Shown here: one piece after another, positions 6,391-50,561 of the stretch | How positions within the stretch are numbered: position 1 is the first letter of the stretch | Layout: each line of letters opens with the position of its first letter | Notes under the pieces: model-generated | Seen by the model: the letters and a program-made list of their open reading frames with translations, nothing else | Told to the model about the DNA's origin: nothing | The model's database searches: none | Position numbers and translations under genes: made by a program | Assembly (NCBI GenBank): GCA_010405405.1 | Contig: MU004235.1 | Coordinates: forward strand, 2,100,506-2,164,505 | Reading direction: 5' to 3' | Source: Microthyrium microscopicum | Lineage: Eukaryota | Length of the DNA: 64,000 nt

Positions 6391-6499
6391 AAGAGTATTT
6401 TAGTATTCTCTATATAATTTAGTAGTAGCGTTAGAATGTAGTTTTTATATAAATCTTATAATAAATACTAAAAGCTTTAAAAGTATATAGAAAGATTAA

Positions 6500-27101: not shown

Positions 27102-28733
27102 ATGATGCCGCGTACTATTAGACTTGCTACTGCTCAGTCACCATCGCTCTCAACCGTCACTGAAACTTTGGCTGCTCTTCGAACCACCGCTCTGACCGCC
27201 GCACGCTCCGATGTTGCACTCATCCTGTTCCCAGAGGCCTATCTGGGACATTATCCACGCCAATGCACCTTTGGATCAAGTATAGGCTCACGTACTGCCA
27301 TGGGGCGAGAACAATATCTGTCCTATTACCACGGCGCTGTCGACCTAGGCGATACACAGGCTGGTGATGTTGAAGCCTGGGCTCGCCGACAATTGCCAAC
27401 ACCTGAAGGCAGCGATGTACGCGGAGATGGCACCAGAGAAGAGTTGGAAAGGGTTGCCGCAGAGACCGGTCTTGTCATTGTATCTGGTGTGGTCGAGCGC
27501 GCTGGAAGCAGCCTGTTTTGCTCCATTGTATGTGTTGATCCAATCAAGGGTATGCTACCAAACAAGCGACGCAAAGTCATGCCTACTGGCACAGAACGAC
27601 TGGTGTGGGCGCAAGGGGACCCAGCCACTTTGAAAGCCATGCGTGTCACAGTCAAAGGAGTTGAAGTGACGATAGGCATGGCGGTTTGCTGGGAAAACTT
27701 TATGCCCTTATTACGTTATGCGCTATACAAGCAAGGTGTGGATATTTGGCTAGCACCAACAGCTGATGCGAGAGATGGATGGCAAGCTTTGATGCGAACC
27801 ATAGCTATGGAAGGAAGAGCCTGGGTTGTCAGCTCCAATCAAGTGGTTAGACAAAGTCAACTGCCTTCATGGGTCTTTCAGTCTGGCGAAACCGAAGGCA
27901 AGAGGCACCAGGAGCATGTCAAAGAAGCTTCGAGTGAGAAAGAAGATACTAGTGGAAGTCACAAAATCTGCTGGCGCAAACCTGGAAACGATAAAATCGC
28001 TGTGGTTGATATGCCACCAGAGATACCGGACCCTCATTCTATATCAGACGAAACTTCGCACCAACTTCAGCGCTCTCAATCCAGGAGAAAGTCATCGATC
28101 TTGAGAACAGAAGAAGGTCATGAAATATGTATAGGAATGGAAGAAAACGTTGCAGATTTCGAACAAGCAATCGCCGAGACCGACGATCAAGCAATAGAAG
28201 ATCAGCCAGAATCCAAGTCATTAGGCTTGAGGAAAGAGTCCTCGATTGTACCTGTTGAAGAAGGCCATGAGATCTTTTTGTCGCCAACCACTACAAGAGA
28301 TCAAGTCGAGCAACCACGCTCTCCATCGCCTTCATCACAACCTTCTAAACATTCAAAGCGCCGCAAATCATCTGTACTTCCATTCCACGACGGTCACAGC
28401 ATTTGTCTCCCTACAACATCGGATGGAAGTCAAATATTTCCTGCCCACAAAGCGAAAGTCAAGCCTGATCCCTATCTCACTAATTCAACAAGGTATGGAA
28501 CCAAAGCAACAGAGGAAGACGCTTTCGTTTGTCGTGGTGGCTCCTTGATTGTGTCTCCTATGGGCGATGTTGTGCAAGGCCCACTTTGGGAAGCTGAAGG
28601 ATTGCTTATATGGGATGCGGATATGGATGATTGTGTGCGTGGAAAATTAGATTTTGATGCTGTTGGACACTATGCGCGTGGAGATGCATTTGAACTTCGT
28701 GTTAGAGGATTAGACTTGGTACCACCGCCATAG
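27102..28733 (+). CDS. Nitrilase (carbon-nitrogen hydrolase) with large internal low-complexity insert
   Basis: Catalytic triad contexts FPEA (E), RRKVMPT (K) and VCWEN (C); C-terminal GGSLIVSPMG..GKLDFDAVGHYAR. Confidence 0.93.
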   Translation: MMPRTIRLATAQSPSLSTVTETLAALRTTALTAARSDVALILFPEAYLGHYPRQCTFGSSIGSRTAMGREQYLSYYHGAVDLGDTQAGDVEAWARRQLPTPEGSDVRGDGTREELERVAAETGLVIVSGVVERAGSSLFCSIVCVDPIKGMLPNKRRKVMPTGTERLVWAQGDPATLKAMRVTVKGVEVTIGMAVCWENFMPLLRYALYKQGVDIWLAPTADARDGWQALMRTIAMEGRAWVVSSNQVVRQSQLPSWVFQSGETEGKRHQEHVKEASSEKEDTSGSHKICWRKPGNDKIAVVDMPPEIPDPHSISDETSHQLQRSQSRRKSSILRTEEGHEICIGMEENVADFEQAIAETDDQAIEDQPESKSLGLRKESSIVPVEEGHEIFLSPTTTRDQVEQPRSPSPSSQPSKHSKRRKSSVLPFHDGHSICLPTTSDGSQIFPAHKAKVKPDPYLTNSTRYGTKATEEDAFVCRGGSLIVSPMGDVVQGPLWEAEGLLIWDADMDDCVRGKLDFDAVGHYARGDAFELRVRGLDLVPPP

Positions 28734-28879: not shown

Positions 28880-29962
28880 TATTTTAAAAAATATTTAATA
28901 AAGCTATTTATATTAATAATAATTCTATTTTTAATTAATTTAATAATTTTACTTAAGTTTTTAGTAAAGCTAGTTATACTACGTTACTATCTTAAATAAA
29001 AATAATAAAAATAATAGTTTAAGTACTAAAAAATAATAAAGTAGTTAATAAAGCTATATAAATTAATAATAATTTTATTTTTTATAAATTTAATAACTTT
29101 ACTTAAGTTTTTAGTAAAGCTAATTATACTACATTATTATCTTAAATAAAAGTAATAAAAGTAATAGTTTTAGTACTATAAAGTAATAAAGTAGAATATA
29201 AAGCTATTTATATTAATAAAAAAATTATTTTTAATAGATTTAATAATTTTATTTGAGTTTGTACTAAAGCTAATTATATTACGTTATTATCTTAAATAAA
29301 AGTAATAAAATTAATAGTTTTAGTACTAAAAAGTAATAAAGTAGTTTATAAAGCTATTTATATTTATAAAAAATTTATTCTTAATAAATTTAATAATTTT
29401 ACTTAAGTTTTTACTAAAGCTAATTATAATATATTATTATTTTAAATAAAAGTAATAAAATTAATAGTTCTAGTACTAAAAAGTAATAAAGTAGAATATA
29501 AAGCTATCTATATTAATAAAAAATCTACTTTTAATAAACTTAATAAACTTACTTAAGTTTCTAGTAAAGCTAATTATATTACGCTACTATCTTAAATAAA
29601 AGTAATAAAATTAATAGTTTTAGTACTAAAAAGTAATAAAGTAGAATGTAAAGCTATTTATATTAATAAAAAATTTACTTTTAATAAACTTAATAATTTT
29701 ATTTAAGTTTTTAGTAAAGCTAATTATATTACTTTACTATCTTAAATAAAAGTAATAAAATTAATAGTTTTAGTACTAAAAAGTAATAAAGTAGAATGTA
29801 AAGCTATTTATATTAATAAAAAATTTACTTTTAATAAACTTAATAATTTTACTTAAGTTTTTAGTAAAGCTAATTATATTACTTTACTATTTTAAATAAA
29901 AGTAATAAAATTAATAGTTTTGGTACTTAAAAGTAATAAAGTAGTTAATAAAGCTATTTATA
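28880..29962. repeat. 150-bp AT-rich tandem satellite, left block (~7 units)
   Basis: AAGCTAT recurs at 28901, 29051, 29201, 29351, 29501, 29651, 29801 and 29951, with the whole unit conserved. Confidence 0.92.
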
Positions 29963-32900
29963 GATAAAAAAGAAAAAAGCATTATCGCACTAAAAGATTA
30001 ATTTCTTAGAATTATTCTATAAAACCATTATTATTAGATTCATTTTATTAAGACTATTATAATAGTATAACTTTTAACTAGACGTAAGCAATAGCTGGTA
30101 CTATAGAGATAGATAAAGATTTATAGTAAATAACTATTATTACTATAAAGACTATCTATATTAAAAATAAGATAATATAGAAATAAAAAGATAACCTAAA
30201 ACTACTACTTATAAAAGTATAAAGAAAAATTAAAGTACTATTAAGAGGACTTATATTTAAAGAAGGGAATCTAATATAATTATTTCTTAATTAGCTAATA
30301 GCTAATTTTATATAACACTACGCGTCCTTTATTATAATATAAAACTACGTTAAATAATTAGTATTTTACCTAGCTCTAACTATAAATAAGACCTCTTTAT
30401 TAATATACCTTAAGGCGCGTCTTAACTAAAAACTTAATATAATTATAAAGTAAATTACTAAGATTAAAATAACCTTTAACTCCTAAGTAAAGGTTATAAA
30501 AGGACTTAACTTACTAATTTTTAATTAAAGGGCTCCCTTTATAAGCCTAATAGTCTAAATTAATATTATAAAAGTAGTTAAAAATATATTAAAGGAAGAT
30601 AAGTAGGATAGAGTAAAGCTATTTAAAAAGATTAAAAAAACTATCCTATAGGTAATAACTATTAAGCTACTACCTAGTAAAAATATTAATATTATAGTTA
30701 ATATATAATTAGATAAGGACTATATCTAAAATAGGCTATATTAAGTAAGCTTAAATAAAATCTAGGTTCTATAATAAGACTATTTAATAAAGATCCTAGA
30801 GGCTCTACTTAAACTAGACGTAGCTTATAGTAAGAATATAGATAATAATAAACTAATTAAAGAACTAATTAATAAAAATAAGATAAGATTTAAATACTTA
30901 AAAATAAAAGTAGTTTAGTAGCTCTATAAGAGCGTAAAGCATAAATAAGTAAAAAAAAAACTAGAAAAGTATAAAAAGATATATATTAAAAGATTATTCG
31001 TACTATACTACTTAATAATAATAATAAGAGATAAGATTATTTAAAAGAAGTTTATTATTAAGGCAAAGGAGCTCTTTACTAGATTATATAACCTAAAATA
31101 TACTACTAAATAGTACTTCTATTACTAAGTCTAAGACTATATATAAATAGCTTATATCTAATATAAACTAAACTATAGCAAATATATAAGTAATTATAAT
31201 ACTAAAGACTATACTAAGATAAGCCTAGTTTAATACTCTAACTATAAAAATAATAAGAAAGAAAGAAGAAAAGAGAAAAAGTAAAGCTAAAAATACTATA
31301 TATAATAAAAAAATATATATAAAGTATACTAAACTTACTTTAAGAGTATAAAAGGATTCTAGGTAGTAAATAAAAAATATATAGAATAGATAAAAGTTAT
31401 AATACTTATCTAAATTATACTAATCTAACTTATAGATAATAATAAATATACTATAATAAATAGTATAAAAAAAAGAAAAATAAGAACTAAAAACCCTAGA
31501 AAACTATTAGTATTATAAAAAGTAAAGAATAAAGTATATAATAACCTAGTCTAGGGTACTTAAAGATTAATTATAAGTATATTTAACTTTAATAAAGGTA
31601 ATAATAGCTTATAAACTATAAGAGATAACGCCCTAAAAGACTAATAAGAAAATAACTATAAAAGAGTAGAATAGGCTATAAATAACCCTAGGCTAATCTT
31701 TAATAATAAAATAAACAAAATTTAAATAATAGACTTAGATAAATAATATTAATATTATATAATATAACTATAAGAGGTTAAATAAGAGGAAAGTAAAGCT
31801 ATTCTTTAATATACTAAATAATACTAAGTAACTAATTATAGTAATTTAAGACTCTAAAAGAATTATAAAGCTAAGAGGAATATACTACTTTCTTAGCTAC
31901 GTATTAGTATATAACTAGAATAATTAATTAAGAATATACTTTATAATAAGTAAGATACTTAATATAGGAAACTAGTAAGTAAAATATTATAACTAATTTA
32001 TCTTAATACTATACCTTTAGTATAGGTATATAATACTAATAATTATTAATATATATAGTAAAAGCCTAGTAGCAAGTAACTATAACTATATTACTAAATA
32101 CCTAATACTAATAAAGATAATTAATAAGGTAGAAGAAGAGATTCTATTAATAAAAAACTTTAACTACTACTATTATTAATAAAGAGGTATAATATTAGCT
32201 ACTAAACCCTAAGTAAATACCTTACTCTATAATACAATTAGGTAGAGGCTTTATCTATATATATTAAAAAAAGAACTAACCTATAAGTTACGTAAGGAAA
32301 GAGAAGTAAAAGTAGTAAAAATAGTAATTAACCTTACGTTTCTATCTTAGTTCCTTTAAGAAAGATTAGAGTTCTATAGCCTAATTAATACCTAGGTACT
32401 AATAGAAGATTATATCCTAATACTAATCTAGCTAACCCTAAAATAAAAGAAGTATATACTAAAAGTATAGTATAATATATAAAAACTAAATATAGAATAA
32501 TTTATTAAATATATAAATAATAGCTTATAAGATACTAAAAATATACTAATAAAGGCCCTATATAGAGTAATAATAGAAGTACTAGAGATTTACTATCTAA
32601 AAATAAAACTTTTAAAGTAAGCTTTATATAAGTAGTTACTTATAATTACTTTATTAATATAAAGGAAGTACTACGTAAGACGAAGATATCTCTAAATAAA
32701 GATTAACTAAAATAAATACATATATAAGTTAGTTATAGCCTAACTAAGAAAATCTCTACGCTAAGATAAAATAATATCTTAGTAGACCTTTATAGAAGAG
32801 ATTATAAAGAATTATAAACGCTATAAAAACTATAGCCTATAGAAAATAAGTAAATAAATAAGAGCTAAAGTTAGTAGACTAAAGAAAGACTTATACTTAC

Positions 32901-33396
32901 TAATACTTAGATAGACTACTAGTAATAACTATACCTATAATAACTAAGATAAAGTAGATATACTATTTATAAAGTTCTTTCCTTAAATAGGAGTAATAGA
33001 CCTTAGTAATATAAAGGACGCTATTCTATTTTTAGAACTAAAGATAAACTATAAAATAATAGCAAAAAAGATAGATTACGTAATTAGTAGCCTCCTAAAT
33101 TATAAGGCGATAAGACTTATTAATATACTAAACAAGGTCTTAAAGGCTCTTAGGCTTAAGGCGTAACTAAAAAAAAAGGATAATAATCTAAAACTAATAG
33201 AATTTAGTAAAAGACTAGCACTTATAATTAGCAAAATACTAATAAGTAGTATAATCTTAGAATATTTAAAGTAATTCTATACGCTAATACTAAAAAAGCT
33301 AGACAAGAAAGACTACTTATTACTAGTAGCCTACTAGCTAATTACCCTTAAGAATATAATAATAAAGTTAATTAAAAAGATTATTACTAATAGACT

Positions 33397-33558
33397 TGTT
33401 GGGGGTTGAACCCCCTGAAGCTATGCCCGTTCGGGCTACCCCTGTTGTATATAAACACCTCGATCGAAGAGTCTCTCGACTCTTCTTTCTCTCTAAGTTA
33501 CCTTCCTGTTTAGCAGGCTCACAATATAACTTGTCTCTTCGTTATCTAACCCATAACA
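33397..33558 (+). repeat. 5' LTR of the young Gypsy
   Basis: Identical to 40822-40983; TATATAAA at 33448-33455. Confidence 0.97.
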
Positions 33559-33625
33559 TTAGGTAACTTCAAAACCAACCCCTCTTTTTACCTACTCCCT
33601 CTCCGTCCGTTAATGAACAGCCAGA

Positions 33626-35299
33626 ATGGCAGACCAAGATCCCTCTCGCCCGACGACCGCCAGACGGGATGGAGAAACGTCCTCCGAGGGCTTTACTCGC
33701 GAGAACGTAGAAGCGCACTTTACGTATATCAACCAACAACAGACGGAGCTACGGAACCACCTGGACGCATCCCAGGAGGCAACCAACAACAGCTTGCAAC
33801 GAGTGACGGACAGTATTTCACTGCTCAACGATACGCTCAATTCATCTATCTCGCAATTACGTACAACTACCACCGGTCACGGACAAGCCCTACAACAACT
33901 GAACGGGTTAACTGGCGAAATTCGTACACGATTGAACGAGAATGCGCAACAGATCGCAGCAGTCCGCGCCGAACTCCAGGCCCAAGTCGACAGCCAGAAC
34001 GAACAGCTTGCCAATATCCGTGCCAGTGGCGAGATCCTCGCACAACAAGTGAACAACACCGCCCGCGAGACGCTAACCCAGTGGCAGCAGCAGGAACGGG
34101 AACGACTCCAGAGGGAATCCATGACGCCCGGCACAACTCTTTCTTCGACACCGGCTGCACCCTTTGCTGGAGAAACCTCCGACCACAGCTACCACCCTCC
34201 TCCGATTCCACAAGCCAATCCTCCTCGGACTCCGATCGCGACAGCTGGACCAGCGGCCCCTCCTCCACCTCCTCCGATGAATCCTCCGGCCGCCCAATAT
34301 GAGCCACTCCAACCACCACCGCGAAACCTCCGACCGGCTCTCCCAAACCCGGAACGATATTCACACGAGGACCCGACCCTTTACCCTGGTTTTCGCCAAA
34401 TGATCGAAGCGAAATTGCACATTGATGGACAGATTTACGCGGATGACTACGCCCGAATCCACTATGTGTTCAGCCGGCTTACAGGAGACGCCGCCCAACG
34501 AGTCCTTCCTTGGATCCAGAATCCTACCGGCCACGGCATTACAAGTTTTAGCGAGTTCATGGAACGGATGGACCTTCTCTTCCGTGACCCGCACGAAGAA
34601 ACAAGAGCTTTGGCAAACCTCCAAGGGATCCGGCAAGGAGGCAGAGAATGGAGAATCTTTTGGGCTGAGTTTCAGCAGTATCTCGTCCGTGCTGGAGCAC
34701 AATTTTGGGCCGCCCCTGTCCAGATGCAGTTCTTAGAAAACGCCATGGATTCTAGTCTCAGAACGGCTCTGATTGCTCGTCCCCGGCCTAACAACTTGGA
34801 TGCCTTCGCTCGAGAGGCTTCGGAAACCTGGGATCGAATGGTTCGAGCCCGTACAAGCCATCGCGGCCTAAGAGGCCCAAGCGCTGAAACAAGTGCTCGG
34901 CAGACTCAGCCGTCCAGGAATCAGGACCCCGACGCGATGGAAGGCGTTCAGGTCGGAGCTAGCCAAGCCCAGCGCGACTACCGCAAGCGAAATAACCTTT
35001 GTTTCCGCTGTGGCTCGGCCGATCATGGAATTCGGGACTGCAAACAGGCGCCCCAAGCGTCGTCTGGAAACCAGAATTCCTCCCGCGGCCAAGTTAGCCG
35101 TGGACGAGGACGAGGCAGAGGAGGCTCCACCAGAGGCGGACGCCCACGGGACAACACTGGTAGATTCCAGGCTGGTGCTGCTGACGCCCCGGACGTCCCC
35201 CAGAGTAGCCAGCCGGTGAGGGCTGCTGCTGCTCAGCCAAGAAACGATGACCCTCGTGACGATCTATATGACGTTACTGACGCGGAATCGGAAAACTAG
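33626..35299 (+). CDS. gag: Gypsy Gag (N-terminal coiled coil, capsid, CCHC zinc knuckle, RGG tail)
   Basis: LPNPERY, SRLTGDAAQ, IRQGGR and knuckle CFRCGSADHGIRDC. Confidence 0.93.
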   Translation: MADQDPSRPTTARRDGETSSEGFTRENVEAHFTYINQQQTELRNHLDASQEATNNSLQRVTDSISLLNDTLNSSISQLRTTTTGHGQALQQLNGLTGEIRTRLNENAQQIAAVRAELQAQVDSQNEQLANIRASGEILAQQVNNTARETLTQWQQQERERLQRESMTPGTTLSSTPAAPFAGETSDHSYHPPPIPQANPPRTPIATAGPAAPPPPPPMNPPAAQYEPLQPPPRNLRPALPNPERYSHEDPTLYPGFRQMIEAKLHIDGQIYADDYARIHYVFSRLTGDAAQRVLPWIQNPTGHGITSFSEFMERMDLLFRDPHEETRALANLQGIRQGGREWRIFWAEFQQYLVRAGAQFWAAPVQMQFLENAMDSSLRTALIARPRPNNLDAFAREASETWDRMVRARTSHRGLRGPSAETSARQTQPSRNQDPDAMEGVQVGASQAQRDYRKRNNLCFRCGSADHGIRDCKQAPQASSGNQNSSRGQVSRGRGRGRGGSTRGGRPRDNTGRFQAGAADAPDVPQSSQPVRAAAAQPRNDDPRDDLYDVTDAESEN

Positions 35300-38200
35300 C
35301 AAGCTCAGATCGAAGACGTGATGCTGAGCTAGAAAATCACAAAAATATTGTTTCGGGACGGCGTCGGAAGTTCTTCGCTCGGGATATGGTTACAGAGCCC
35401 TTTTTAATACCTTTGATAGTAAATCAACTTTCTTCGTGCACAGGCTTTGTTGATAGTGGCTGCTTAACCTATTCCCTTGTGAGTCTCCGCTTCGCCCGAA
35501 GACGTAAACTTGAACGCATACCGCTACCTCGGGCGATTCCTATTGAAGGGATAAACGGCGAGGCCGGAGAAATCCGCGAAATGGCGATTATGAAGATCGA
35601 CATTGAAGGCTACGAAGAAACTGTTCGAGCCTTTATAGTGAAAGAGACCCTGGGCCATGATGTGATCCTCGGCCTGCCTTGGATGAAGAAACGGGATGTT
35701 ATTCTCCATGCAAAACCTGAGAAGCTAGTCTTCAACGAAACAGGTCATACGGTTATGAGTCTAAAGACTCCTCGGAAGAAGTATAACCACGCAGCGATCG
35801 GGGCTGCAGCATTTGAGATGCTCGCCCGACAAGCTAGAAAGCAGGCAAGACAGTCTCAAGAAGGCTTAACACCGATCGCACAAGTCTTTGCTGTGAGTCT
35901 TCACGACTTACAAAAAGCCCTTGCTCCAAAGAAGCATGTCGACCCTCGTGGGAAGCTTCCTGAATGGTGTTCGGATTACCTCGACCTCTTTCAAAGAGAG
36001 CTGGCCGATAAACAGCCACCCATCCGAGGCCTTTCCGTAGACCATAAGATTGACCTGATCCCGGACGCCAATGGAAGGGAACCTCAGTTACCTTGGCAGG
36101 CATTATACCCTATGAATCGGGACGAATTGCTAGCCCTTAGAAGAATCCTTAACGATCTACTAGAAAGCGGGTTTATTCGAGTGAGTAACTCGCCCGCTGG
36201 AGCACCGGTTCTCTTCGTTCGCAAAGCAGACGGATCAATTCGGTTTTGTTGTGACTACCGCGCGTTGAATGAGTTGACCGTGAAGGACCGTTACCCCTTG
36301 CCACTCGTCCGTGAGACACTAAATGCCTTAGGAAAGGCACAATGGTTTACTAAGCTGGACGTATCTCAAGCATTCCATAAGATTCGGATACATGAGGGTG
36401 ATGAGTGGAAGACGGCCTTTCGGACACGATATGGCTTATTTGAATGGATGGTGACACCGTTCGGGTTGTCAAATGCTCCAAGCACCTTTCAGAGGTTTAT
36501 CAACTCTGCCCTTCAGGATATCTTGGACGACTACGTTTCCGCATACTTGGACGACGTCTTAATCTTTAGCTCAGGTACTAGGAAGCAACATGAGGCCCAC
36601 GTCCGTGAAGTCCTCGAGCGGCTACGAAAAGCAGGACTCTACCTTGATATCCGGAAGTGTGAATTCGCAACTACTCAGACGACATACCTAGGCTATATTA
36701 TCAAGGCCGGACAAGGAATCTCAATGGACCCGGCTAAAGTTAAAGCAATCCAAGAATGGGAGGCTCCCAAGAACGTTCGTGGAGTTCGAGCTTTCCTTGG
36801 CTTTGCCAACTTCTATCGTAGGTTCATACCGAACTTTCGAACAATTACGGAACCTCTTGTTCGACTTACCCGGAAGGACGTTCCCTTCTCGTTTAAAGAC
36901 CCAGAGAGAGCTGCGTTCGAGGAGCTGAAACAGCTCTTTACCACTGACCAAATGCTAGCCCCATTCGACCACGACAGAGAGACTCTCGTCTATACCGACT
37001 CCTCTGGTTACTCTTCAGGAGCCGTACTAGCACAAAAGGACAAGACAGGCGAGTTTCGACTAGTAGCCTATTTCTCTAAAAAGTACAACTCCGCTCAAAG
37101 TAACTACCCAATCCATGATAAAGAGATGCTCGCAATTATGCTTGCTCTAGAAGAATGGGACTCAGAGCTACGAGCGGTAGAGAAGTTCGAAGTGATATCC
37201 GATCATAAGAACCTAGAGCATTTCATGAAACCACAGAAGCTTACAGAAAGGCACGTCCGATGGTCTATTGAACTTGCAAAGTATAATATGACAATTAAAT
37301 ACCGACCAGGTCCACAGAACGGCGCAGCAGATGGTCTCTCTCGTCGTGAACAAGATATGCCCCAGGACGCGGCCGACGAGAGGATCCAGGCTAGAACTTT
37401 CCAACTGCTTCGTACCCAAGGAGATCAATCACTTAAACCACTACAAGCCTTGCCCGTCCACATTACCGCCCTTCCTATAGCGGTTGAAGACGAATCAGCG
37501 GAGACTCTACTAGCCGACGAAGCTTTGATCCCTAGCTCACTACCACCAACACCGAACGTCCCTGAACTATTAGCAACCCGGTGGGATGAGGCAGTGCGGG
37601 CCGACAATACCTATCAAGTGGCCTATTAAACGATTAAAGCTGGCGGACGGAAGTTTCCCCCATCGATCGCAGGCATCAAAATCTCTGTCCCCGACTGCTC
37701 AATCGATAGCGAGGATCGCCTTCGCTGGAGAGGACGACTATGGATCCCAAACTTGGAACCTCTGCGGACGGCAATACTACAAGCGGCTCATACGTCCTTA
37801 ACCCAAGGCCATCCCGGCCGTGAAGGAACTTACCAAGCTTTACAGCCGCACTTCTTCTGGCCCGGAATTGCGGCCGACACAAGGCGTTTCGTAAGAAATT
37901 GTGGTGTATGTAGCCGATCGAAGGTTAGTCGTGAGCAGAAAAGAGGCTTCCTAAAGCCTTTACCCGTCCCAAACCGACAGTGGCGAGAACTATCTATGGA
38001 TTTTATAACGGACCTCCCTCTATCGAACGGATGCACAATCTTGATGGTTATTACTGATCGGCTAAGTAAAGGAGTAATCCTGATCCCCCTCGCTCGGAGA
38101 GAAGCTGAGGACGTTGCGGCTGTTTTCTTACAACGCGTCTATTCCCTCCATGGTATTCCTGACGCAATTGTCCACGATCGTGACCCAGCATTCGTAGGAG

Positions 38201-39114
38201 ACTTCTGGACGAAGTTCTGCGCGCTACTACGGATAGAGCCACGGCCGTCAACCGCATTTCACCCCCAGACGGATGGCTCTACAGAACGGCGGAACTCGGA
38301 CATTGAAGCCAAAGTACGAATATATACGAATCATGCACAATCGAACTGGTTCTCGCTAATGCCGATACTTCAACTTATGCTTAACTCGCAACGCTCGTCC
38401 GCAACAGAACTCTCACCCTTCTTTCTATCCCACGGCTTTGAAAACTCTGCCTTCTCGGACTTCCCTGAGCAAGCTCCCTTGTCCGAATGGAAGGACACTC
38501 CGAAAGAGAGGGGGGAAGAAGCCGCTCGTACAATTTTAAAAGCCACGGAATGGGCTCGAGATGCTATGACCCTCGCCTAAGAAAGGATGCAGGAACAAGC
38601 CAACCGAACAAGGATCCAAACGCCTAAGTACGAAGTCGGCGATTGGGTCTGGCTAGACCTAAAGAATACCAAGACTAAACGAGCGAAGAAGAAGTTTGAT
38701 CACCGTTACTCTAAGTTCCAAGTCACAAAGGTAGTAAGCTCACATACGATCGCACTGAACACGCCGTGGAGAACCAAGAAATTCCACGTCGACCTACTCA
38801 GACCAGTAACGGACGACCCATTCCCAAGTCAAGACGCTGATGATTCTCATCCACCACCAATCTTAGTTGAGGACTCAGACGGAGAGGAACAAGAGGAGTA
38901 GCCAGTAGAGGAGATTGTGGCCGAAAAATATAAGAAGACAACAAAGGGCAAACTCCGTACAGTCTACGTCGTTAAATGGGTAGGTTATCCAGACACAACG
39001 GAAGAACCGATCGACTTCATCGAACAGTCAGAAGCCTACGTAAAGTGGATAGAGAAGACAAAGCACGTACGAGATGATCATGGAAGATTGGTGCCAAACT
39101 GGTCTATTCTTTAA
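35290..39114 (+). pseudogene. pol: Gypsy Pol (protease, RT, RNase H, integrase, chromodomain) in the -1 frame, with three in-frame stops
   Basis: DSG protease, YLDD RT, TDSS..YPIHDKE RNase H, HHCC and SMDFI..DRD..TER integrase, YVVKWVGYP chromodomain. All fragments share one frame; stops at 37627, 38578 and 38899. Confidence 0.93.
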
Positions 39115-39311
39115 GTACAACTAAGATCAAAAACTAGCCCTCCTGTCATGGTGATCGACTCCGTAGAGACACGATCGGAGGTGCTATCTATAACCCACGC
39201 ACGGAAACACTTTTCTTTTGTCTATACCAAGACCCCCTTTCCTACCGAACAAAACCAGAAAATCACAAAAACACGAGAAAACCAAAGAAACAAGACACGC
39301 CCGACAAACCC

Positions 39312-40213
39312 CTACCACCAAGGAAGATAAACTTGAGTAGTGCCCCGGGGCACAGGAGGACCAAAGTAGACGGTCGATGGTGGAGGATTCTTGTCCTCCT
39401 TGGCGACCTCCTCCTTGTTGTCGCAAGGACACTTCTTACCCGAGCCAACATTGTCATCATGGACGCAGTTCGAACACATGTTGTTGCGAAATCCCGGAAG
39501 CCGAACGCAACCCACATATCGCGGCCAATTCTTTGAATTAGAATAGCCAACGCAACGAGTACAACGCTGCTCCTTACGAGTCTTATTCCGCTTGTTTTTG
39601 GCAGGGAATTGTAGGATACCCGCACGATGAATACCCAAGGCTTCAAGATAACCAGCCCGGCCACTAGTCAACTGAATCGTGCTAAGGGAGCTCTGACGAA
39701 TCATAATGCCACGAACGTTGGGCTGCGAATCATTAGTGAACCCCTCAGAGGAGGCGTTCAACAAGTCAAGACGCTCGTTAGAGGAGTTGGGAGGATAGTC
39801 GGCCATGGTATGAAGGGCCTTACTCTACGAACACGTTAGCATGAATCAAGAAAGGCTAGAGAAGTACGTATGGTCTGGTTAATGCAAAGTGCCTTGAATA
39901 AAGCACAGTTTTGCAGATCGCGGTAGTCAATAACCACGTACACCTTCTTGTGTTGGAGAGTGGTCGGCAGACGGGGACGAGGGTTATGAATGATATCGTT
40001 CTGGTAACGAAGTGGGACTTGGTTGAGAAGGCAAAGGCCCTTATTCACGTTGTTCTGGCAGGCCTTACGCATAGCTACCTCGTGCGTAGTAGGCGGACGA
40101 GGTTGAGGAGCATTGCGGTTGACAACGTACACATGAGGAGGGGCAACGGCAACGAGGATACGACCGTTGAAGCCAACAGTATTGTCAAAAGCGTTGACAA
40201 TTGGGGCAGCCAT
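39312..40213 (-). CDS. Antisense cargo gene of the Gypsy element; C-terminal Cys-rich DUF3716-like domain; predicted spliced
   Basis: ORFs 39836-40219 and 39312-39806 join in frame via predicted introns 39941-39893 (GTACGT..AAG) and 39867-39825 (GTACTT..GCTAAC..TAG). Motif CTRC-x10-YVGCVRLPGFRNNMCSNC-x11-CPC. Confidence 0.62.
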
Positions 40214-40260
40214 CTCCATACGGTTAGCAAGGCTACAGCCATCATGACGAACAACTTACC

Positions 40261-40297
<37 letters not shown>

Positions 40298-40310
40298 AGT
40301 TGATTGATTG
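40261..40310. repeat. (TGAT)n microsatellite in the predicted 5' UTR of the antisense gene
   Basis: About 12 near-perfect TGAT units. Confidence 0.9.
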
Positions 40311-40821
40311 GGCAAGGAAGAAGAAACTTGATGAGGACTGATCGGAAGAGAAGAAGCTTGTTCGAAGTGTGATGAAGGAAGAATGGTTAACTCTGCGGAA
40401 CGACATTGCTTTATACCCTCCGAACGTACAGGCAGAAGCACAGTGACTTAACCGCAGTTACGTTCTTCCGATCTCATCCCTTGATGTCGTGATAGAGCTC
40501 TGACCGAGCATGAACAAGACGACCCGCCAATCAAGCAACCTTCACGGGATCACGACCGAAAAGAACCAACATTACACGCCAAGAAAGGGGCCTTACACCC
40601 AGAATTCAGTCCAAAACAGGCAAAACATTAGTACGGAACCAATGGTTGACGACCTGAGCTTTACATTTCACACCCAAAAGTGAACGCACAGATCTGTGCG
40701 TTGCAAACGGAAGCTCCGTCGCGAACCGCGAGAACGGCAAGCGTCGGACACAGCCAGATAAGATCAGGATCTCACGATCGACTTGGTGTTTTGGCCAGAA
40801 TTTTTTGGACGGGGGGGGTAA

Positions 40822-40983
40822 TGTTGGGGGTTGAACCCCCTGAAGCTATGCCCGTTCGGGCTACCCCTGTTGTATATAAACACCTCGATCGAAGAGTCTC
40901 TCGACTCTTCTTTCTCTCTAAGTTACCTTCCTGTTTAGCAGGCTCACAATATAACTTGTCTCTTCGTTATCTAACCCATAACA
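40822..40983 (+). repeat. 3' LTR of the young Gypsy
   Basis: Identical to the 5' LTR; followed by TSD AGACT. Confidence 0.97.
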
Positions 40984-41823
40984 AGACTTACCTAACTTAT
41001 AAAGAATAACGATCTACTATCCTAGAACTAAATAAGAACTAGAGTAAGGTAGTTAACGCTAATAATAATATAGCTCCTAAAGAGTACTATTAAGGTAGCG
41101 TAAAAAAGAAACATAAGAACTATAATATTAATACTTAGCCTTAACTTTTAAAGAATATATAATAATATTAATCTAAGGAAGCTCTTCTATATCCTAAAAA
41201 TAAAGAGAATCTCCTAGTAGCTAATTAATATAGTAATAAGCTTTATTACTAATTATATAACCTAAATCATATTTACTAAGTACTAAAACCTAATAATAAT
41301 AACTAATATAAAAATCTTTTAGGAATTTTTCCTCTTACTTATTCTCTTTCTCTTCTTTATATTAAAACTACTAGAATACTTCTAGGATATAAGTAATAAT
41401 ATCTTTAGATTTAGCTTTATAAATAATACTATATTAGTTATATAGGATAATACTACCTAAAAAAACTATATAAGACTAGAAAAGGCTTACTAAAAGTACG
41501 CTAACTAAATAAATAAGTATAGAGTAAAGTTTACTCTTAATAAGTATTAAGTAATATACTTTACTTAGAATATTTACTACTTAGAAGTAGACTTATAATC
41601 TATAGTAATAATAAATAGTATATCTACTAAGCTTATACTAGAGAGTATTAAAGTACTAAGTATATAAGTAAATAAAAAAATAAACTAAAAAGACTATATT
41701 AAAAAGACTAGAACTAAAGGATTTAAGTAAATAGTAATACTTTTAAGAATAGCGTAGTTAAAATAAAGACTAATCTTTAGAAAGATAAAGCTTCTTTATA
41801 TAGCAATTATTAGGCTAACCTTT

Positions 41824-44800
41824 TATTAGAGATTAAGGTTATAGAGTAGGTAAGAAGGTTATAAGATACTTAAATAGATTAGATATATAGAAATAGGAAT
41901 AGGAGTAATTACTAAGGAACTATAAGGAGATTCCTTAGCTTCTATCTTATTACCTAGGAACCTTTAAGGTTCCTCTCTAAGCTAGAGTAGTCTATCTATA
42001 AGCTAAGGTACCTTAGAGGTATACTTAGCTACTAATTATAATAGTTAGGAACTTATTAGTTCTCTTAACTATAGAATATACTAAAGCTAAAGAAGTAGCT
42101 TTATTAGCTTCTAATAGCTATTAGGCTAAGGTACTTAGGCTATAATGTCTATCTTAGAGAGTTTATTAGGTTTAATTCCTAATATTATTCCCCTAATAAG
42201 GACCTAAACGTCCTTATAGGTCTTTAAAGAGTTAACTACATTTTAATAGTACTAATATACTTTAGAGTATATTATATTGTAATAGTATAAACTACTTAGC
42301 TACTATCTAGCTAGCTAGATAATAATCTTAGTAAATCTTAGTAAATTTATTATTAGTTTTAAACGTTACTTAAAGGGGTACTCCTTAAATAACGATTTAT
42401 AAAGCTAAATATTACTATTAAGTACTTATTTAGGTTTATTTAGGTTCGTTAAGAACTTAGGCGTTTTTAAGTTCCCTTAGGCTATTGTCTTAAGCCTACT
42501 TAATCTATAGGTTATTACCTACTAAGGGTGACTTCCCTCTTTAGAATCTTTACCTATAATAAGGATTAATATTAAAGCTTTCCTTAATAGGAAGCACTTA
42601 ATAAAGTAAGTATTTACTCTCTACTAACCTAATTAGGTAGGAGGGTATTAAATAAGATATATTTAATCTTATAATTGTATACTTCTTCTAATTCTTTTTT
42701 ATTCTACTTTTATAGAATTAAGGTATATACTTAAGTAAACCTTAGCTAATTAAGTAAAGCTAACCTTTATAAATAGAGTTATAGTATAAGGATAAGTCCT
42801 AGCTAATAGTCTTAATATTTTACTAGTAGCTTCTTTATAAATCTACTTAGTATACTTTATACTCTTTTATACCTATTCTCTCTAATAGCTACTATAAAGG
42901 ATAAAGTAGGAGCTAATAAGGCTCTAAATAGACCTAGTTTATCTCTATCTAACGCCTTTAAGGTCTCTAAGGATGCTTCTAAGGTCTCTAAGGATATTAT
43001 TATTTTACTAAAGACTTTAATTGCTAGTATTATAAAACTAGCTAATTCCTTTAATACTAATACTACTAAAAAGGTAACTAATAAGGTTAAATTCGTTAAT
43101 AGTACCTAAATTAATGCTAATGATAACTATATTAAACTATTAAGTTTAGGCTACTTTTCTTTAAAGTCTTCTAAATCTAAGGAAATTAAAAAGGATATTA
43201 TCTAGACTAAGAAGAAGGGAAAAGCTTCTAAGCATAATTATAATAATAAATCTAAACCTTCTTAGCCTAACGTAAAGTAAATATATAATAATAGTATTAT
43301 ATATATTAATAAGGCTTAGGCTTAGTTTAAATTATACTAGACCTCTCTTATCTATAATATATTAATTAATTATAGTTAGTTAGGTAGTAAACGTTTTCTA
43401 TATAACTTTAATAATAATAAGATAGAACTATTTAACGTAGATAAGTCTATTCTATATAAGAATAAGGCTAAGTTAATTATTAAATAGTTTCTTATACTTA
43501 ATCTATATTAATAATATACTAAAGTATACGCTAAAACCTTCTTATATACTAATTTAAAGAATTAGTACTATATAGCTTCTAAGAACTACGTATTAGCCTT
43601 TAAGGTTTAAGATAATTACTACTATATAACCTATAAGACTACTAAGTCTTATTAATAGTGTCTTAAGATAAGTTATTCCTAATTAATTTAATTTAAATCT
43701 AATTATTACTAATTGTTTCTTAGGTTATCCTTTATAAGAAGGGTATTACTAAGGATCTCTTTTAGAAGCATTATAATATAATAAAGGTCTATATACTTTA
43801 TTAATAAACCTATAATAGCAATCTAAGTAAGTATAATATAAGTTAGCTCCTTTATACTAAAAAGGTAGTTTATATTACTAATAAGAACGTTATAGAGACT
43901 ATTTAGACGTAAGTAAACTCTCTTATTATACTTAGGTTTAAACTAACATAAATAGGTATATCTATATTAATACTATAAATAATACCTTCCCTTTATATTT
44001 TAGTATTACTAAGAGTAAATATAATAGTATCTATATAATGCTAGTATATTATAGAAATAGTAAAAAGGTCCTTATAACTAAGAAGGCTACTTATTACTTT
44101 AAAGTAGCTCTACTTAGAGCTATTATTAGTATTGCTTATATTAAGTACTATAATAACCTTTACGTCTATTATTATAGGTTTAAACTATTTATAAATAGTA
44201 ACTAGAAGGATATAAGTACTTTAATTGCATTACTTAGATTCTAACTAACTCTATTCTAGGTTATAGGTACTTTATTATATTAAATTAGTAATCTTACTAA
44301 CGTCGTAAAGATACTTACTTCTTAGTAAGCTAATAGTACTAAAAAAAAGGAGAAGGCTTCTAACGTAAGTTAGTTTATAACCCTTTAGAGCTAGATTAAT
44401 AAGTATAAGCTTAGAATAAATAAGTAGGTAGTTCTTTATTACTATCTAGTTATAATAAGTTAGATTAATTCTAAGAATAATAATTTAGAGTCTAAAGAGT
44501 TTAAAGAGTTTAAAGAGTAGATATAGCATTTAGTAGATATATTTAGTATTAAGTTAATACGTTTAGTATCTAATAAGTAAGGTTAGTTATATTTTAGGTT
44601 TATTATAAGTTATTTATTAGTATTTAGTAGCTATTAGATTCTATTTAAACTAATTTATATAAATAGTATAAGATAGTTTCTTTTAATAAAATACTTTCTT
44701 AAATTTTTAAGTTCTTTTTTATAAACCTAGATAGTACTTAAGGGTATATCTTTATAAACCTAAAATCGTTATTTTAAGGTATTTAAAAGATACCTCTTTA

Positions 44801-47800
44801 AGAGTTAATAAGTAAAGCTAAAGTAATACTAATAGTTTTAGGTTTAGGTTTAAAATTAGTTCTATGTCTAGTTCTAAATTTTCTTTAAGTCTTTTTTATT
44901 TAGACTATATTTATATATATATTTATAGGAACCTATTTATTCTAAAGTATTATAATAGTATTATCTAGGTACTATTTAGTTTTATCTAAATAGGCTTATC
45001 TTAATTATAAGTAAGGTAAATTATTATTATACGTTTATATATGCTATAAAGTAACTACGCTTTTATACTTATTCTCTCTATAAAAAGAGGCTTATTCTAA
45101 GTCTTATTATAATCGTTTTAGTCTACCTAGCCCTCTCTTAGCTAGTATAGGTTTAGTAAGTACTAAAGGCTTCTTTAGATATCCTTTTAGCTTCTTAGGC
45201 TCTAGATAAGATTTATTTAAGTTAAGTTATTCTAAGTCGTATTTAGTTACTTTTATTAGAGCTAATTTAGCTAGGAAGATATCCTTTTTCTTTAATTTCT
45301 CTTAGTAGCGCTTTAGCATAACTAAGGAGAGATTATTAGTAAGTTTCTAGTTTACTTTAGACGTAAAGTAGTTCTTCTACTTTACTTTATAGTAATAGGT
45401 ATTATCTTTATTAACCTTATATCTAATAATATCTTTAACTTTATAGTAATTAGTTTCTTTAGAGTTTAAGGTTTCCTAAGGTAAGACTATTTACTATAGG
45501 AAGTATATATTAGGTATATATTATTATAATAAGGAAATATAGAAGACGTTATAAACTAGAGCGCCTTTAGGTAGATTAATATAGTACGTATTATAGTTAA
45601 TAACCTCTATTACTTTAAAGGAGCTTATATACTTAATATCTAGTTTCTTTTTAGACTTAGCTATTTTAATATTCTTTATATTAAGTAGAACTTAGTTATT
45701 TACCTTTAGGGTAACGTTCTTATAGCCTTTATTATAGTATTTAGCTTATAGGGTTTAAACGTTCTTTAGATAGGCCTAAAGAGCTTTCTAGAAAAATAGA
45801 ATATATTCTACTAGTTTCTTTACGTTAGAAGTAGTACTTATTAGGTACTCTTTAGATACTTTTAGTACGTATAGGTATTTACTTATATATGCTATAAATA
45901 GAGTAATACTAGTTAAGCTATATATACTATTATTATATATAAACTTAGTAGAATTAAGCTTTTTAGCCTAATTATTCTACTCTTAGCTATAGTAGATATA
46001 TAAATAGTACTTAATCTCTTAGTTTTAACGCTTTATTTACTTATCTATCTAGGGTTAGAATATAGTAGATAGCTTTTATTAGATCCCTAAGTAGTAGAGA
46101 AATATATTCTAGAACTTAGAGATAAATATAGAGCTTCTATTAAATATAATTATATTTAGTACGCTATAGAGTTATACTACCTTATATAAGAAGAGCTTAG
46201 TAAGATTATTTATGTCTATATCTTTATAATAAGGTACATAATAAGCTATTTTAGTTAGTTTATAAATAACTACTATAATAGAGTTATATAGCTACCCTTA
46301 GAAGATGCTTAAGAGTAAGTTAGTAATAAAATTAACTATAATATCTTCCTAGAAGGCTATTAGTACTAGTAGGGGTAGAAAGAGCTTATTTTAGCCTTAT
46401 TTAATAGATATATTTTATTTATACTCTAAATAGGCTATATAGTACTCTTAGATATTCTTATTAATATTATCCTAAGTATAATAGCGTTAAATCTTCTTTA
46501 ACGTCTTATATTAGCCTTTATAGCTTCCTTCTAAAGGGTTATTATAAAAATATTAGAGGACTTAGACTTTGTTATTCTCTATAGTAACCTCTATTTATAG
46601 ATAGGTCTATTTATCTTCTATTAGCTTAGTAGGGAAGCTATTAAGTATATCTAACGTAGTAATAATATCTACTTTCTAAGAATTATTTCTTAGGTACTAT
46701 AATAAGGTACTAATAGATATAACTAAGATAGTAATAAACTTAGTTAGGTCTTTATTAGGCTTAGGGGCCTTAGATAGTTATAGTTTGTCTTAGATAAGGT
46801 TTAATAAGGTATCTATAGTTCTTTTCTATTCTATATTACTTAAGGAGACGTAGTCTAGTCTTTATAAGAGTCTATTTATAGGGTTTATCTTCCTTAGATA
46901 GTACTTAACGTTAAACTTAAACTTAGTAAGGAAATCTATCTATCTTATATATATAGTAAAGACATTTTAGGATATATTAAGTAAATAGAGGTTTATATAA
47001 TTTATTAAGACTAAGAACTTTAGAATATTATATAGGTACTTATAAAAGACTCTTATAGAGTTAATAATAGCTAAGAACTCCTATTATAGGGTCCTATAGT
47101 AACTCTTAGGTCTTAATAGCTTCCTTAAGTAGAACGCTATAGGTTACTATTAGCTCTCTTAGCCTAGCTTAGTTTACTTTTAGCTTAAAATACTATAGAT
47201 TGCTTGCTTAAAGGTATCTATCTCTAGATAGGTTTCTAATATAGGATTATAGTAAGTAAAGATTAGTATATATATAAAGATAGCCTTTAGGTTATTAAAG
47301 AATTAAATAGCTTTAGGAGAGAGGTTAATAGGAACTAATTCTTTATTACGTAGCTATTAGCCTTTTAGGGCCTGTCTTAAAAGCTTCTTAGTTAAAGAGT
47401 TTAATAGGGAAGTAATATAAGAGAAGTTAGTAATGAAACGTTAATAGTAGTTTATAAAGCTAATAAACTTTCTTACTTAGTATATATTATATAGTATTAG
47501 CTAATCTATAACTATTATAATTTATTCTAGTTCTACTATAGTATTATTTAGGGTTATAACGTACCTAAGGTACTTAGTTTAGTCTATATAGAAGCTATAC
47601 TTTAATAGCTTAGTATATAATTTAAATTTAATAAGTCTTTTAAGTATCTTCTTTATATATTTAATATAATTTTCTTTATTCTTAGAGAAGATAAGGATGT
47701 CGTTAAGGTAGATAATATAAGTTACGTTAATAAGGCTATGTAGGGCTTAATTAATATACGCTTAGAAGGTAGTAAAAGTATTAGTAAGCCTAAAGGATAT

Positions 47801-50561
47801 TACTTAGTACTTAAAGGACTTATATTTAGTTTAGAATGCTATCTTTTACTTATTATTAGTATAAATATAGATATAATAGTATACTTTATAAAGGTCTAGG
47901 CTTATAAAGAGCTTAGCTCTTAATAGTTAGTTTAATAACTCTTTAATTAGTAGTAGAGTATAGTAGTTTTTAACTATAATATTATTTAAGTCTTTATAGT
48001 CTATATATAGATATAAGGTACTATCCTTTTTCTTTATAAAGATAATTAAGGCTCTAGTAGGAGATTAAGATTTATAGATAAATCTCCTCTTAAGATTTCT
48101 CTTAAGGTATTTACGTAGAACGACTAGTTTTGCTTTTAATAGGCTATAAATAGGTTAATAGGGTATAGTTATACCTAGCTTAAGGTTAATAGCTAGGTCC
48201 TATAGACTATATTCTACTAAATTCTATATTTTATTCTTACTAAAGGCCTCTATAAGCTTCTTATAATAATATAGTAAGTCTTATAAGTTAATATAGTCTA
48301 ACAACCTTACTAGATACTTAAAGAGCTAAGTAGATCTATCTTAACTTAATTAGAGTAGTTTCTCTAGAGAGATAGAGCTAATCTTACTATAGTAGTTATC
48401 TTCTAGATAAATAAAGGATAAAGTCTTAGCTTTAAAGTCTAATAAGGGGTTCTAGTTCTTAAGCTAGAGTATCTTTATAATAATTATATAGTATAGTAAG
48501 TCTATAATATAAAATAATACCTTATTAGTCTTTAAGATCCTATTAGAGTTAACTATTATTACTTTAGTAGTTACTACTTTATAGATAGTTATAGGCGTAC
48601 TATTTAGGTACTTAGCTAACTCCTCTAGGAGATAATATATCTCTAATTAAAGCTTCTTAGCTAAGGCATAGTCTATAATATTAAAATAGGCCCTACTATT
48701 AATTATTACGCTTTATAGCGTATAATCTTAGCTTACTTAATTCTAAGTAGTTCCTTATAGAATAATTTGGCGCAATTTCTTTAATTAGTATACCTTCTTA
48801 TCTAGAATCTTCTTATTTCTTACTACCTCTAGGACCTAAGTAATAATAACTTTATAAAAGTTGCTAGGGAGGTTAAGGACTAGATTATTTATAATAGAAG
48901 CTATAAGGTCTTAGTTAGCTACTTTATAGCTTAGTCTTTTTCTTTAATTCTCTTTAGCTTTAGGTTAGGGTAGTTATAGGCTATATAGCCTACCTTAGCA
49001 TAATTTTAGTACTTACCTTTACTAAGGTTACTAAGAAATAGCTATTTAACTTTAGGCGTTACGTTATTTTTTAGTTTATTTAGCTTTAAAGCCTTATTAG
49101 AAGGGCTTAGTCTAGACTTTTTTAACTTATTCCTTTAGGAACCTTATTAAGTCTTATCCTTTAGATCTATAGACGTTAAACGCTATTTAGAGGATTTGCT
49201 ATTTTTAGTATCTTTTTTAGAAATAGTTAGTGTCTTTTAGTTACTAATAGGTTTTAAGTACTTTAAAATATATTAAGATAAGGCTTCTTTAGCTATCTTA
49301 ACTATATAGTCTAGGTTAAAGATTATATTATTTCTAAGATAAGTAGATAGTCTATTACTAAAGAATAATAGGCAAATTAATATATTATTAATTTTATACT
49401 TATAAAAAAGAGGTATAAGCTTGTTAAAGTATTCTTAGAAGGTCTTTTCCTCTATTATAGTAGTTAAGAAGCTCTAAAAGGCCTTATAACGCTTCTTAAT
49501 AGGCGGACTAAGGAGTTTAAGGGCCTATTGTTCTATAAGGGCTTACGTAGGTTTATATTAGTCTAGTTTAGTTAGCTAGGTCTAGAAATTAACGTAATTA
49601 TCTTAAGTTAGTTGTATAACCTTCTTATTAAGGTAATTATAGGCTTAGAGGATTGCTAGGTATAGGTTCTTTTTGTATTTCTTTATAGTAAGTATATTAG
49701 TTATATTAAAGACTTAATCCTTATACTCTTATAGACTTTTAGCTTTATATATTTATAGTTTATTACTACTATAAGCTAGTTTAGAGTTATTATATTTAAT
49801 ATAGGCTAAAATAGCTAGGCTAGCGTTATATTAACCCTATTTATTAATCTATTTAACTAAGTAGAGTTTTCTATATTTATAAGCTACTTTTATTGCTTTA
49901 AGTTATTTAATTTTAAGTATGTTATATATTTGCTATATTTTAGCTTGTAGCTATTTTAGCGTCTCTTTTATATTTGCTACTAGTTCTAGATGAGCTTATT
50001 CTATATTAGTAAGGTTACTTATAGGGCTACTTAGTCCTACTAGGGTTAGTGTAGCTATATTTAGTATAACTAGATTTAGTCTAGCTAGTTTCGCTCTAGG
50101 GGCCTTATCCTTAGGTTTTATTAGTTTATTACTTATAACTAATTATAGTGTTTTAAAGGAAAAGCTTTATAGGTACTCTATTAGTAAGAAGCAATTATAA
50201 TATTAGAAATTAAAGTTATAGAGTAGGTAAGAAGGTTATAAGATACTTAAATAGATTAGGCATATAGAAACGAGGATAGAAGTAATTGCTAAGGAACTAT
50301 AAAGGGATTCCTTAGCCTCTATCTTATTACTTAGGAACCTCTAAGGTTCCTCTTTAAGCTAGAGTAGTCTATCTATAAGTTAAGGTACCTTAGAGGTACG
50401 CTTAGCTACTAATTATAATAGTTAGGAACCTATTAGTTCTCTTAACTATAGAATGTACTAAAGCTAAAGAAGTAGCTCTGCTAGCTTCTAATAGCTATTA
50501 GGCTAAGGCACTTAGGCTATAATGCTTATCTTAGAGAGTCCGTTAGGTTTAATTCCTAATA
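41824..50561 (-). mobile_element. Heavily RIPped Ty3/Gypsy chromovirus of a second family (8738 bp)
   Basis: 361-bp direct repeats 41824-42184 and 50201-50561; TSD CCTTT (41819-41823 and 50562-50566); LINE sequence resumes exactly relative to copy B. Minus-strand relics: CCHC knuckle ~48975-49015, IYL(D)DILIFS ~47700, RNase H THDQEFLAI ~47080, chromodomain VKWKNY ~45375. Confidence 0.9.

Follow-up and report, generated by a model that had tools for sequence, protein, structure and literature searches.

A probable intron-split antisense gene with a DUF3716-like cysteine cluster between pol and the 3′ long terminal repeat of a Ty3/gypsy retrotransposon in Microthyrium microscopicum

Organisation of the element

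The stretch analysed here, a 64,000-nt window of Microthyrium microscopicum contig MU004235.1 to which all coordinates refer, holds a complete long terminal repeat (LTR) retrotransposon insertion (33397–40983); the minus strand between its pol gene and its 3′ LTR very probably holds an intron-split protein-coding gene. The features of the element and of this antisense gene are collected in Table 1. The two LTRs are 100% identical over their 162 nt and form the sole long direct repeat in 32500–42000, with a 5-bp target-site duplication (TSD; AGACT) on either side of the pair. Pfam matches place the Ty3/gypsy (Metaviridae) domain order gag–protease–reverse transcriptase (RT)–RNase H–integrase along 33617–38577, those in pol being RVT_1 (E 1e-40), RT_RNaseH (E 5.5e-31), Integrase_H2C2 (E 8.5e-17), rve (E 2e-8) and, at 38902–39111, Chromo (E 4e-5; 23.9 bits, the cut-off being 25.1). 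As an initial annotation of this DNA had noticed, pol contains three in-frame stops (TAA at 37627–37629, TAA at 38578–38580 and TAG at 38899–38901); this copy accordingly lacks the intact pol of an autonomous element. The pol frame terminates with a TAA at 39112–39114.

From this terminator to the polypurine tract there are approximately 1.7 kb, in which two open reading frames (ORFs) lie on the minus strand. ORF A (39836–40255) comprises 139 codons from stop to stop, with its first in-frame methionine at 40219 and the next at 40213, immediately past a candidate intron of the 5′ untranslated region (UTR); ORF B would form the last coding exon. An opposite-strand ORF in this interval is the defining layout of the aORF-3R class of additional ORFs (aORFs), a class that includes brtn of Boty. 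Signals for transcription and splicing are located where such a gene needs them: a TATAAA upstream, GTAAGT and GCTAAC in the presumed leader, and GTACGT or GTGTAC, GCTAAC and TAG between the two ORFs. The initial annotation had described the 1.7-kb interval, the TATAAA, the (ATCA)n leader and the GTAAGT...GCTAAC pair with its GAG acceptor, and each was found again in its place.

Table 1. Positions of the element, its genes and the predicted antisense gene in the window
Feature	Position	Strand	Basis or remarks
TSD AGACT, left copy	33392..33396	.	alignment of both LTR borders
5′ LTR, 162 nt	33397..33558	+	TG...CA ends (TGTT...AACA)
gag frame, one CCHC knuckle	33617..35299	+	Retrotrans_gag E 1.7e-6; zf-CCHC E 0.049 (Pfam)
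pol, −1 frame relative to gag	35281..39114	+	protease, RT, RNase H, integrase, SH3-like, chromodomain
Predicted last coding exon (ORF B), 170 codons plus TAG stop (39312–39314)	39312..39824	-	codon periodicity
Cys cluster CxxC-x14-C-x10-CxxCxH-x9-CxC, 7 Cys + 1 His, DUF3716-like	39423..39563	-	translation, Pfam
Basic patch, 12 residues, K/R-rich, directly N-terminal to Cys cluster	39564..39599	-	translation
Intron zone, one 119-nt intron favoured	39825..39943	-	in-frame joins, third-position A
Two-intron model of the initial annotation	39941–39893 (49 nt), 39867–39825 (43 nt), 25-nt exon between	-	271 codons; weak: very short introns, micro-exon
Single intron A, 119 nt	GTGTAC (39943) to TAG (39825)	-	262 codons; weak: poor donor GTGTAC
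Single intron B, 119 nt, shifted 2 nt	GTACGT (39941) to GAG (39823)	-	262 codons; weak: poor acceptor GAG
Predicted first coding exon, 92 codons from Met 40219	39944..40219	-	A at position 3 in 6/92
Candidate 5′-UTR intron, 46 nt	40214..40259	-	GTAAGT 40259–40254, GCTAAC 40228–40223, GAG acceptor end 40214
(ATCA)n microsatellite (TGAT array), 12.5 units, presumed leader	40261–40310	-	Tandem Repeats Finder
TATAAA, candidate core promoter (putative function)	40415–40410	-	sequence
Polypurine tract GGACGGGGGGGG	40807..40818	+	LTR-border alignment
3′ LTR	40822..40983	+	100% identical to 5′ LTR
TSD AGACT, right copy	40984..40988	.	alignment of LTR borders

Coding signal of the minus strand

The lengths of the ORFs were compared with 2000 dinucleotide-preserving shuffles of 39115–40821, among which the longest ORF was of 170 codons or more in 145 cases, while ORFs of at least 170 and at least 139 codons occurred together in 30. 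Base composition by codon position gives a sharper signal. Adenine occupies the third position in only 12 of 126 codons of ORF A and 10 of 170 codons of ORF B, and makes up 27–32% of positions 1 and 2; chi-square tests for A by codon position give p 5e-5 and p 2.6e-9, respectively. In a sliding window, the A-poor phase extends from near 40220 to near 39320, matching the limits of the ORFs, and changes frame between 39920 and 39850, which is where the two ORFs must be joined. Ranked by periodicity, the 39 ORFs of at least 120 codons (stop to stop) in the window are headed by ORF B, with the plus-strand shadow of ORF A in second place and ORF A itself in fourth. When the region was randomised 2000 times under a Markov-1 model, neither of the two longest ORFs had a p value of 5e-5 or below in any version.

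Since periodicity cannot separate a sense frame from its exact antisense register, strand was assessed with codon models scored against their own reverse complements, the models being trained on seven host genes of the window, on gag-pol, or on both. The log2 likelihood ratios (LRs) favour the minus strand for exon 1 (+9.6, +19.9 and +12.6 bits with the host, gag-pol and combined models, respectively) and for ORF B (+18.6, +13.7 and +20.6 bits); in a leave-one-out control all 12 of 12 known genes scored positive. We conclude that ORF A and ORF B are, or recently were, translated exons of the minus strand. The spliced antisense gene proposed by the initial annotation is thus recovered, from periodicity and strand models, as a split minus-strand coding signal.

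Gene model and splicing

Three models join ORF A to ORF B in frame (Table 1). The two introns of the initial annotation do connect the ORFs in frame, but we prefer one intron of 119 nt, because third-position A speaks against both the micro-exon that two introns require and a read-through of ORF A. The 25-nt micro-exon has A at 4 of its 9 third positions, compared with 6.1% in the two exons (LR of 72 for non-coding), and ORF A read through to its own stop has A at 6 of 35 (LR of 9 for non-coding). The two variants of the single intron, which share the branch sequence GCTAAC at 39840–39835, are not separable.

Upstream of the coding region, the presumed leader contains only two ATGs (40245 and 40242), which open an out-of-frame ORF overlapping the start; as both lie within the candidate leader intron at 40259–40214, removal of this intron is plausible. 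A survey of host introns in the window yielded six candidates (seven rows) of 52–155 nt, a sample too small to set a length limit. No joint across the proposed introns is present in contigs from four sequencing runs, none of them recorded as RNA, and those of one run (X2, guessed to be RNA) are unspliced over the region; such contigs carry no information on splicing, because they drop rare forms.

The predicted protein and its probable relation to DUF3716

The terminal cysteine pattern reported by the initial annotation is present in the translation of ORF B, where the eight Cys/His ligands of the cluster are enough for two zinc ions. The adjoining basic patch may act as a nuclear localisation signal, which it resembles, and, from these two features, the product is probably a small nuclear zinc protein. 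That it would also bind DNA is suggested by analogy with the protein described below.

Likeness to DUF3716, also part of the initial annotation, is suggested by two different kinds of search, both below their formal levels of strong evidence; the C-terminal cysteine cluster is the only portion of the product with any echo in the databases. DUF3716 (PF12511) is the only Pfam family to match ORF B (E 0.034; 14.5 bits against a cut-off of 22), with residues 84–132 aligned to profile positions 11–56 of 59. In a feature search of the ESM Atlas with ORF B, 19 of the 30 nearest clusters have PF12511 in 90–100% of their members, and all of these are Ascomycota-dominated (score 0.91, 197 of 256 features shared). 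It is meaningful that two different methods should arrive at the same fungus-specific family among about 25,000, and ORF B is likely to be homologous to DUF3716.

Other comparisons yielded little. Searches of PDB sequences gave no matches at E up to 10, and NCBIfam nothing relevant. A metagenome scan with ORF B produced 62 pattern matches, none of which was confirmed, and one with the integrase produced a single locus, which was rejected as it has bacterial-looking frames and no retroelement. The sole match of ORF A (E 9e-4) was likewise rejected, being a repetitive protein with unrelated Pfam echoes. An AlphaFold2 model of ORF B computed without an alignment is unusable (mean predicted local distance difference test score 35, predicted template modelling score 0.13).

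Among DUF3716-linked proteins, NCU05718 of Neurospora crassa is the only one for which we found a tested activity in the available portions of the literature. The recombinant protein directly bound double-stranded TTAGGG repeats (PMC4650311), and its Fusarium orthologue (PSC58, Fusarium graminearum) carries DUF3716 (PMC10776026). The predicted protein possibly belongs to the same domain family; NCU05718 and PSC58, however, are host genes and not borne by transposable elements (TEs), and in the available text the DNA-binding part of NCU05718 is not mapped to DUF3716.

Other copies of the element

Contigs of four public sequencing runs (X1 and X5 of organism A, X2 of organism B from another study, and X6 of organism C) were compared with 33560–41000; depths of these contigs do not equal copy numbers. 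The internal region, from 33560 or 33573 to 40251, shows zero differences in the X1, X5 and X2 contigs, the three pol stops included. X6 contributes seven contig pieces with an identity of at least 99% and a single T>C change. All assemblies break at the (ATCA)n array (40252–40312), with contigs of X1, X2 and X5 ending on both its sides. Under two organism labels (A and B), the 6.7 kb of the internal region are letter-identical.

Many further short contigs of X1 and X5 are 88–95% alike to the element, and their listed differences are exclusively C>T and G>A (5 and 8 places), as expected of repeat-induced point mutation (RIP). These RIP-type variant contigs cover parts of 39038–39535, 39785–40033 and 40532–40780, and one loose contig end at 39306 has five transitions in 24 letters relative to the window. 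Judged from these contigs, the accessory region is present, at least in part, in older copies of the family that RIP has mutated; a capture unique to the present copy is therefore disfavoured.

Within the window, a blastn search for a second copy of the element matched only the two LTRs. An alignment in purine/pyrimidine code, which is blind to RIP, revealed a distant, heavily RIP-mutated gypsy relic on the minus strand at approximately 45500–48700, collinear with the element from RT to integrase and with one segment 75% alike over 710 nt in the two-letter code. The same alignment of the window gave no counterpart of the accessory region, whether beside this relic or elsewhere.

Comparison with known systems

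The layout has a fungal precedent in the Boty-like elements of Botrytis and Sclerotinia, which are reported to have an antisense gene, brtn, in the interval from pol to the 3′ LTR (PMC8365987, and PMC7264820, where Boty is named as a non-plant case); its description is attributed to Zhao et al. 2011 (Virology 417:248) by PMC8365987 and PMC4227169. In view of this precedent, the initial annotation goes too far in stating that gag and pol are all that fungal chromoviruses encode. The position and orientation reported for brtn are those found here; the present element has LTRs of 162 nt. A survey, ‘LTR Retrotransposons in Fungi’, mentions additional domains, in its available text, only for complex nested elements (PMC3248453).

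Plant elements, too, are described with antisense ORFs in the interval from pol to the 3′ LTR, namely gene23 of maize Grande, and those of rice RIRE2, Silene Retand and Phaseolus PvRetro13 (PMC7264820). The product of Grande gene23 is nuclear, and the gene is transcribed from a promoter of its own; for the plant aORFs, a regulatory role or the production of double-stranded RNA has been proposed. Their proteins are without clear database similarity, and gene capture is one listed origin of such ORFs (PMC7264820). Position and orientation agree with those of the present gene; the plant aORFs, however, sit in the non-chromovirus Tat/Retand lineages, whereas here the element has a Cys-rich DUF3716-like module and predicted introns.

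A TE with DUF3716 genes is likewise on record. REP9 of Zymoseptoria tritici, a class II (IS3EU-like) transposon, carries REP9-1 and REP9-2, both DUF3716 genes, and altered expression of REP9-1 changes pycnidia formation (PMC8232023). REP9 and the present element would both be fungal mobile elements with DUF3716-type accessory genes, family membership being only suggested here; REP9 is a DNA transposon with DUF3716 annotated above threshold, whereas the present element is a retrotransposon with a sub-threshold match. Both the layout and TE-borne DUF3716 genes are hence already known, and what we did not encounter is a published LTR retrotransposon bearing a DUF3716-like gene: in the literature on DUF3716 and on antisense or additional ORFs of fungal LTR elements, as far as its available text extends, no such gene is reported, and brtn is the only fungal antisense-gene precedent found.

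Proposed function and alternative explanations

Spliced antisense genes and TE-encoded regulators have conceptual analogues further afield. In the retroelement HTLV-1, the spliced antisense gene HBZ encodes a nuclear factor, and VANC, a DNA-binding factor encoded by the Arabidopsis TE VANDAL21, counters the silencing of that TE family. These resemble the present gene in their way of working; they have no sequence relation to it and belong to other hosts and element classes.

The explanation we favour, and hold to be somewhat more probable than otherwise, is that this Ty3/gypsy chromovirus carries a spliced antisense accessory gene encoding a probably nuclear, DNA-binding zinc protein which acts on the element. 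The gene, of the ‘antisense aORF’ type, would be read from the opposite strand in the 1.7-kb interval from pol to the polypurine tract, with transcription starting from its own putative TATA promoter near 40415. The transcript would begin with the microsatellite leader, from which the 46-nt intron, together with the two upstream ATGs, would be removed; the 92-codon exon would then be joined to the 170-codon exon, most likely across one intron of 119 nt, giving a protein of about 262 residues. Introns oriented against the genomic RNA persist through reverse transcription, because they cannot be spliced from it, and those predicted here would be copied at each cycle of retrotransposition. The small nuclear zinc protein would bind DNA and, by analogy, may act on the DNA or chromatin of the element itself; control of transcription, silencing or protection from silencing, and targeting are candidate roles. 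The initial annotation had likewise suggested a possible action on chromatin, silencing or RIP.

Several results weigh against this explanation. The length of the ORFs is by itself not convincing, as it is within reach of chance. The strand scores, at approximately 0.1–0.2 per codon, are below those of 11 of the 12 known genes (0.18–0.50), and third-position usage over 39315–40219 (A 6–10%, T about 40%) is unlike that of both the seven host genes (A 19–31%) and gag-pol (A 23–36%). Every intron model has a flaw: the donor GTGTAC and the acceptor GAG are poor, and introns of 43–49 nt are very short. The Pfam match, taken alone, is near the noise level, since among five other frames of the same region, used as controls, there was one unrelated match at E 0.068. 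The recognition value of ORF B in the Atlas (1934) is under the level of strong evidence, and ORF A has no Atlas match. Homologues of ORF B were found neither among proteins of near length nor among longer ones (E up to 10), nor with the Cys region alone, and ORF A (126 residues, counted from the codon after the first Met) has no credible homologue among 1.84 billion representatives. Finally, as pol of this copy is broken, the gene cannot now serve an autonomous element. Translational selection, foreign origin and silent C-to-T drift are candidate causes of the unusual third-position usage.

The initial annotation had also pointed out that the antisense ORFs remain open although pol is interrupted. 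They do, but the argument has little weight: at the rate seen in pol (three hits in about 5.5 kb), approximately 0.5 hits are predicted in the about 0.8 kb of the gene, and open ORFs would be expected roughly 6 times in 10.

The gene may alternatively be a passenger, that is, a host DUF3716-type gene which was captured, with its promoter and introns, by the lineage of the element and which has no role in the life cycle of the latter. We regard this as unlikely, though it is the best placed of the alternatives. DUF3716 genes are ordinary fungal host genes, sometimes strain-specific (PMC5225507), capture is a listed origin of aORFs in plant elements (PMC7264820), and codon usage of the antisense gene is unlike that of gag-pol. 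It is, however, also unlike that of the host genes, and the degraded family copies that appear to carry parts of the region imply a capture that was neither recent nor confined to this copy.

A second possibility, which we consider very unlikely, is that the antisense RNA itself matters, pairing with the genomic RNA at its 3′ end and feeding RNA silencing, with the protein being secondary or not made. The geometry provides full complementarity to about 1.1 kb of genomic RNA, and such a role has been raised for the plant antisense ORFs (PMC7264820), but a function in the RNA would leave unexplained why three-base periodicity is confined to the two ORFs and switches phase at the intron. That the frames are open by chance, in a 3′ region that is non-coding and has no gene, is fractionally less probable still: the shuffles produced an ORF of 170 codons often enough, the protein searches gave no homologues and the Pfam match is sub-threshold with similar E-values from control frames, yet chance does not account for the periodicity of ORF B and its absence from all the random regions, for codon models that favour the minus strand, for the convergence of Pfam and the Atlas on one fungal family, or for promoter and splice signals in the expected places. 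The least probable alternative is a nested fragment of another mobile element behind pol, such as a DUF3716-carrying DNA transposon of the REP9 kind (REP9 of Zymoseptoria has two such genes; PMC8232023), as the 1.7 kb have neither terminal inverted repeats nor flanking direct repeats, Pfam detects no transposase-like frame among all long frames, and GC content and RIP indices show no break towards the rest of the element.

An antisense accessory gene in the service of the element, as favoured above, could form part of a broader pattern in which DUF3716 is a DNA-binding zinc module repeatedly recruited by mobile elements of Pezizomycotina, in the present case by an LTR retrotransposon with a spliced antisense gene and in Zymoseptoria by a DNA transposon, and in which the protein acts on element chromatin, for instance shielding it from heterochromatin silencing or RIP or steering integration; transposons would on this view be behind part of the uneven, strain-specific occurrence of DUF3716 genes. 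We think this distinctly improbable, less so than an effect of the RNA or chance frames. At present the gene is a well-formed prediction from one copy with a broken pol and not a demonstrated system. Were it expressed and conserved, fungal retrotransposons would have, besides brtn, a second kind of antisense accessory gene, this one with a module recognisable as domain-like, which would offer an experimental handle on the function of such genes. DUF3716 would then be tied to two classes of mobile element, which could help to account for the patchy and strain-specific distribution of its genes, and a testable activity would suggest itself, namely sequence-specific DNA binding near the LTR or at repeats.

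Pol stops and genomic setting

The three stops in pol each sit between Pfam domains (RNase H and integrase; integrase core and SH3-like; SH3-like and chromodomain), and all are explainable by single CpA-to-TpA changes of the RIP type, from CAA, CAA, and CAG or TGG. A rescue of pol by A-to-I editing or read-through was considered but not adopted, as TAA accounts for two of the three stops.

The element is surrounded by a GC-poor block (approximately 20–25% GC) with extreme RIP indices (TpA/ApT 1.67–1.8; (CpA+TpG)/(ApC+GpT) 0.07–0.18). Those of the element, 0.90 and 0.98, are intermediate between these flanks and the host genes (0.67–0.73 and 1.35–1.40). A 15-nt inverted repeat, 87% complementary, connects 40566–40580 with 40813–40827 at the junction of polypurine tract and LTR, 232 nt apart, and may be due to chance.

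Across the window, AT-rich blocks (13–30% GC) with extreme RIP indices (TpA/ApT 1.66–1.80; (CpA+TpG)/(ApC+GpT) 0.07–0.18) at 5000–8000, 29000–33390 and 41000–62000 alternate with gene-bearing blocks of 44–51% GC. Host frames on the gene-rich side (1812–28733), named by eye from their translations, include one that is 2OG-oxygenase-like (1812–2711), two that are transporter-like (2768–4204, minus strand, and 8885–10399), one Ser/Thr-rich (12400–13626), one small-heat-shock-like (16224–17012), one of 1507 codons (20430–24953) and one nitrilase-like (27045–28733).

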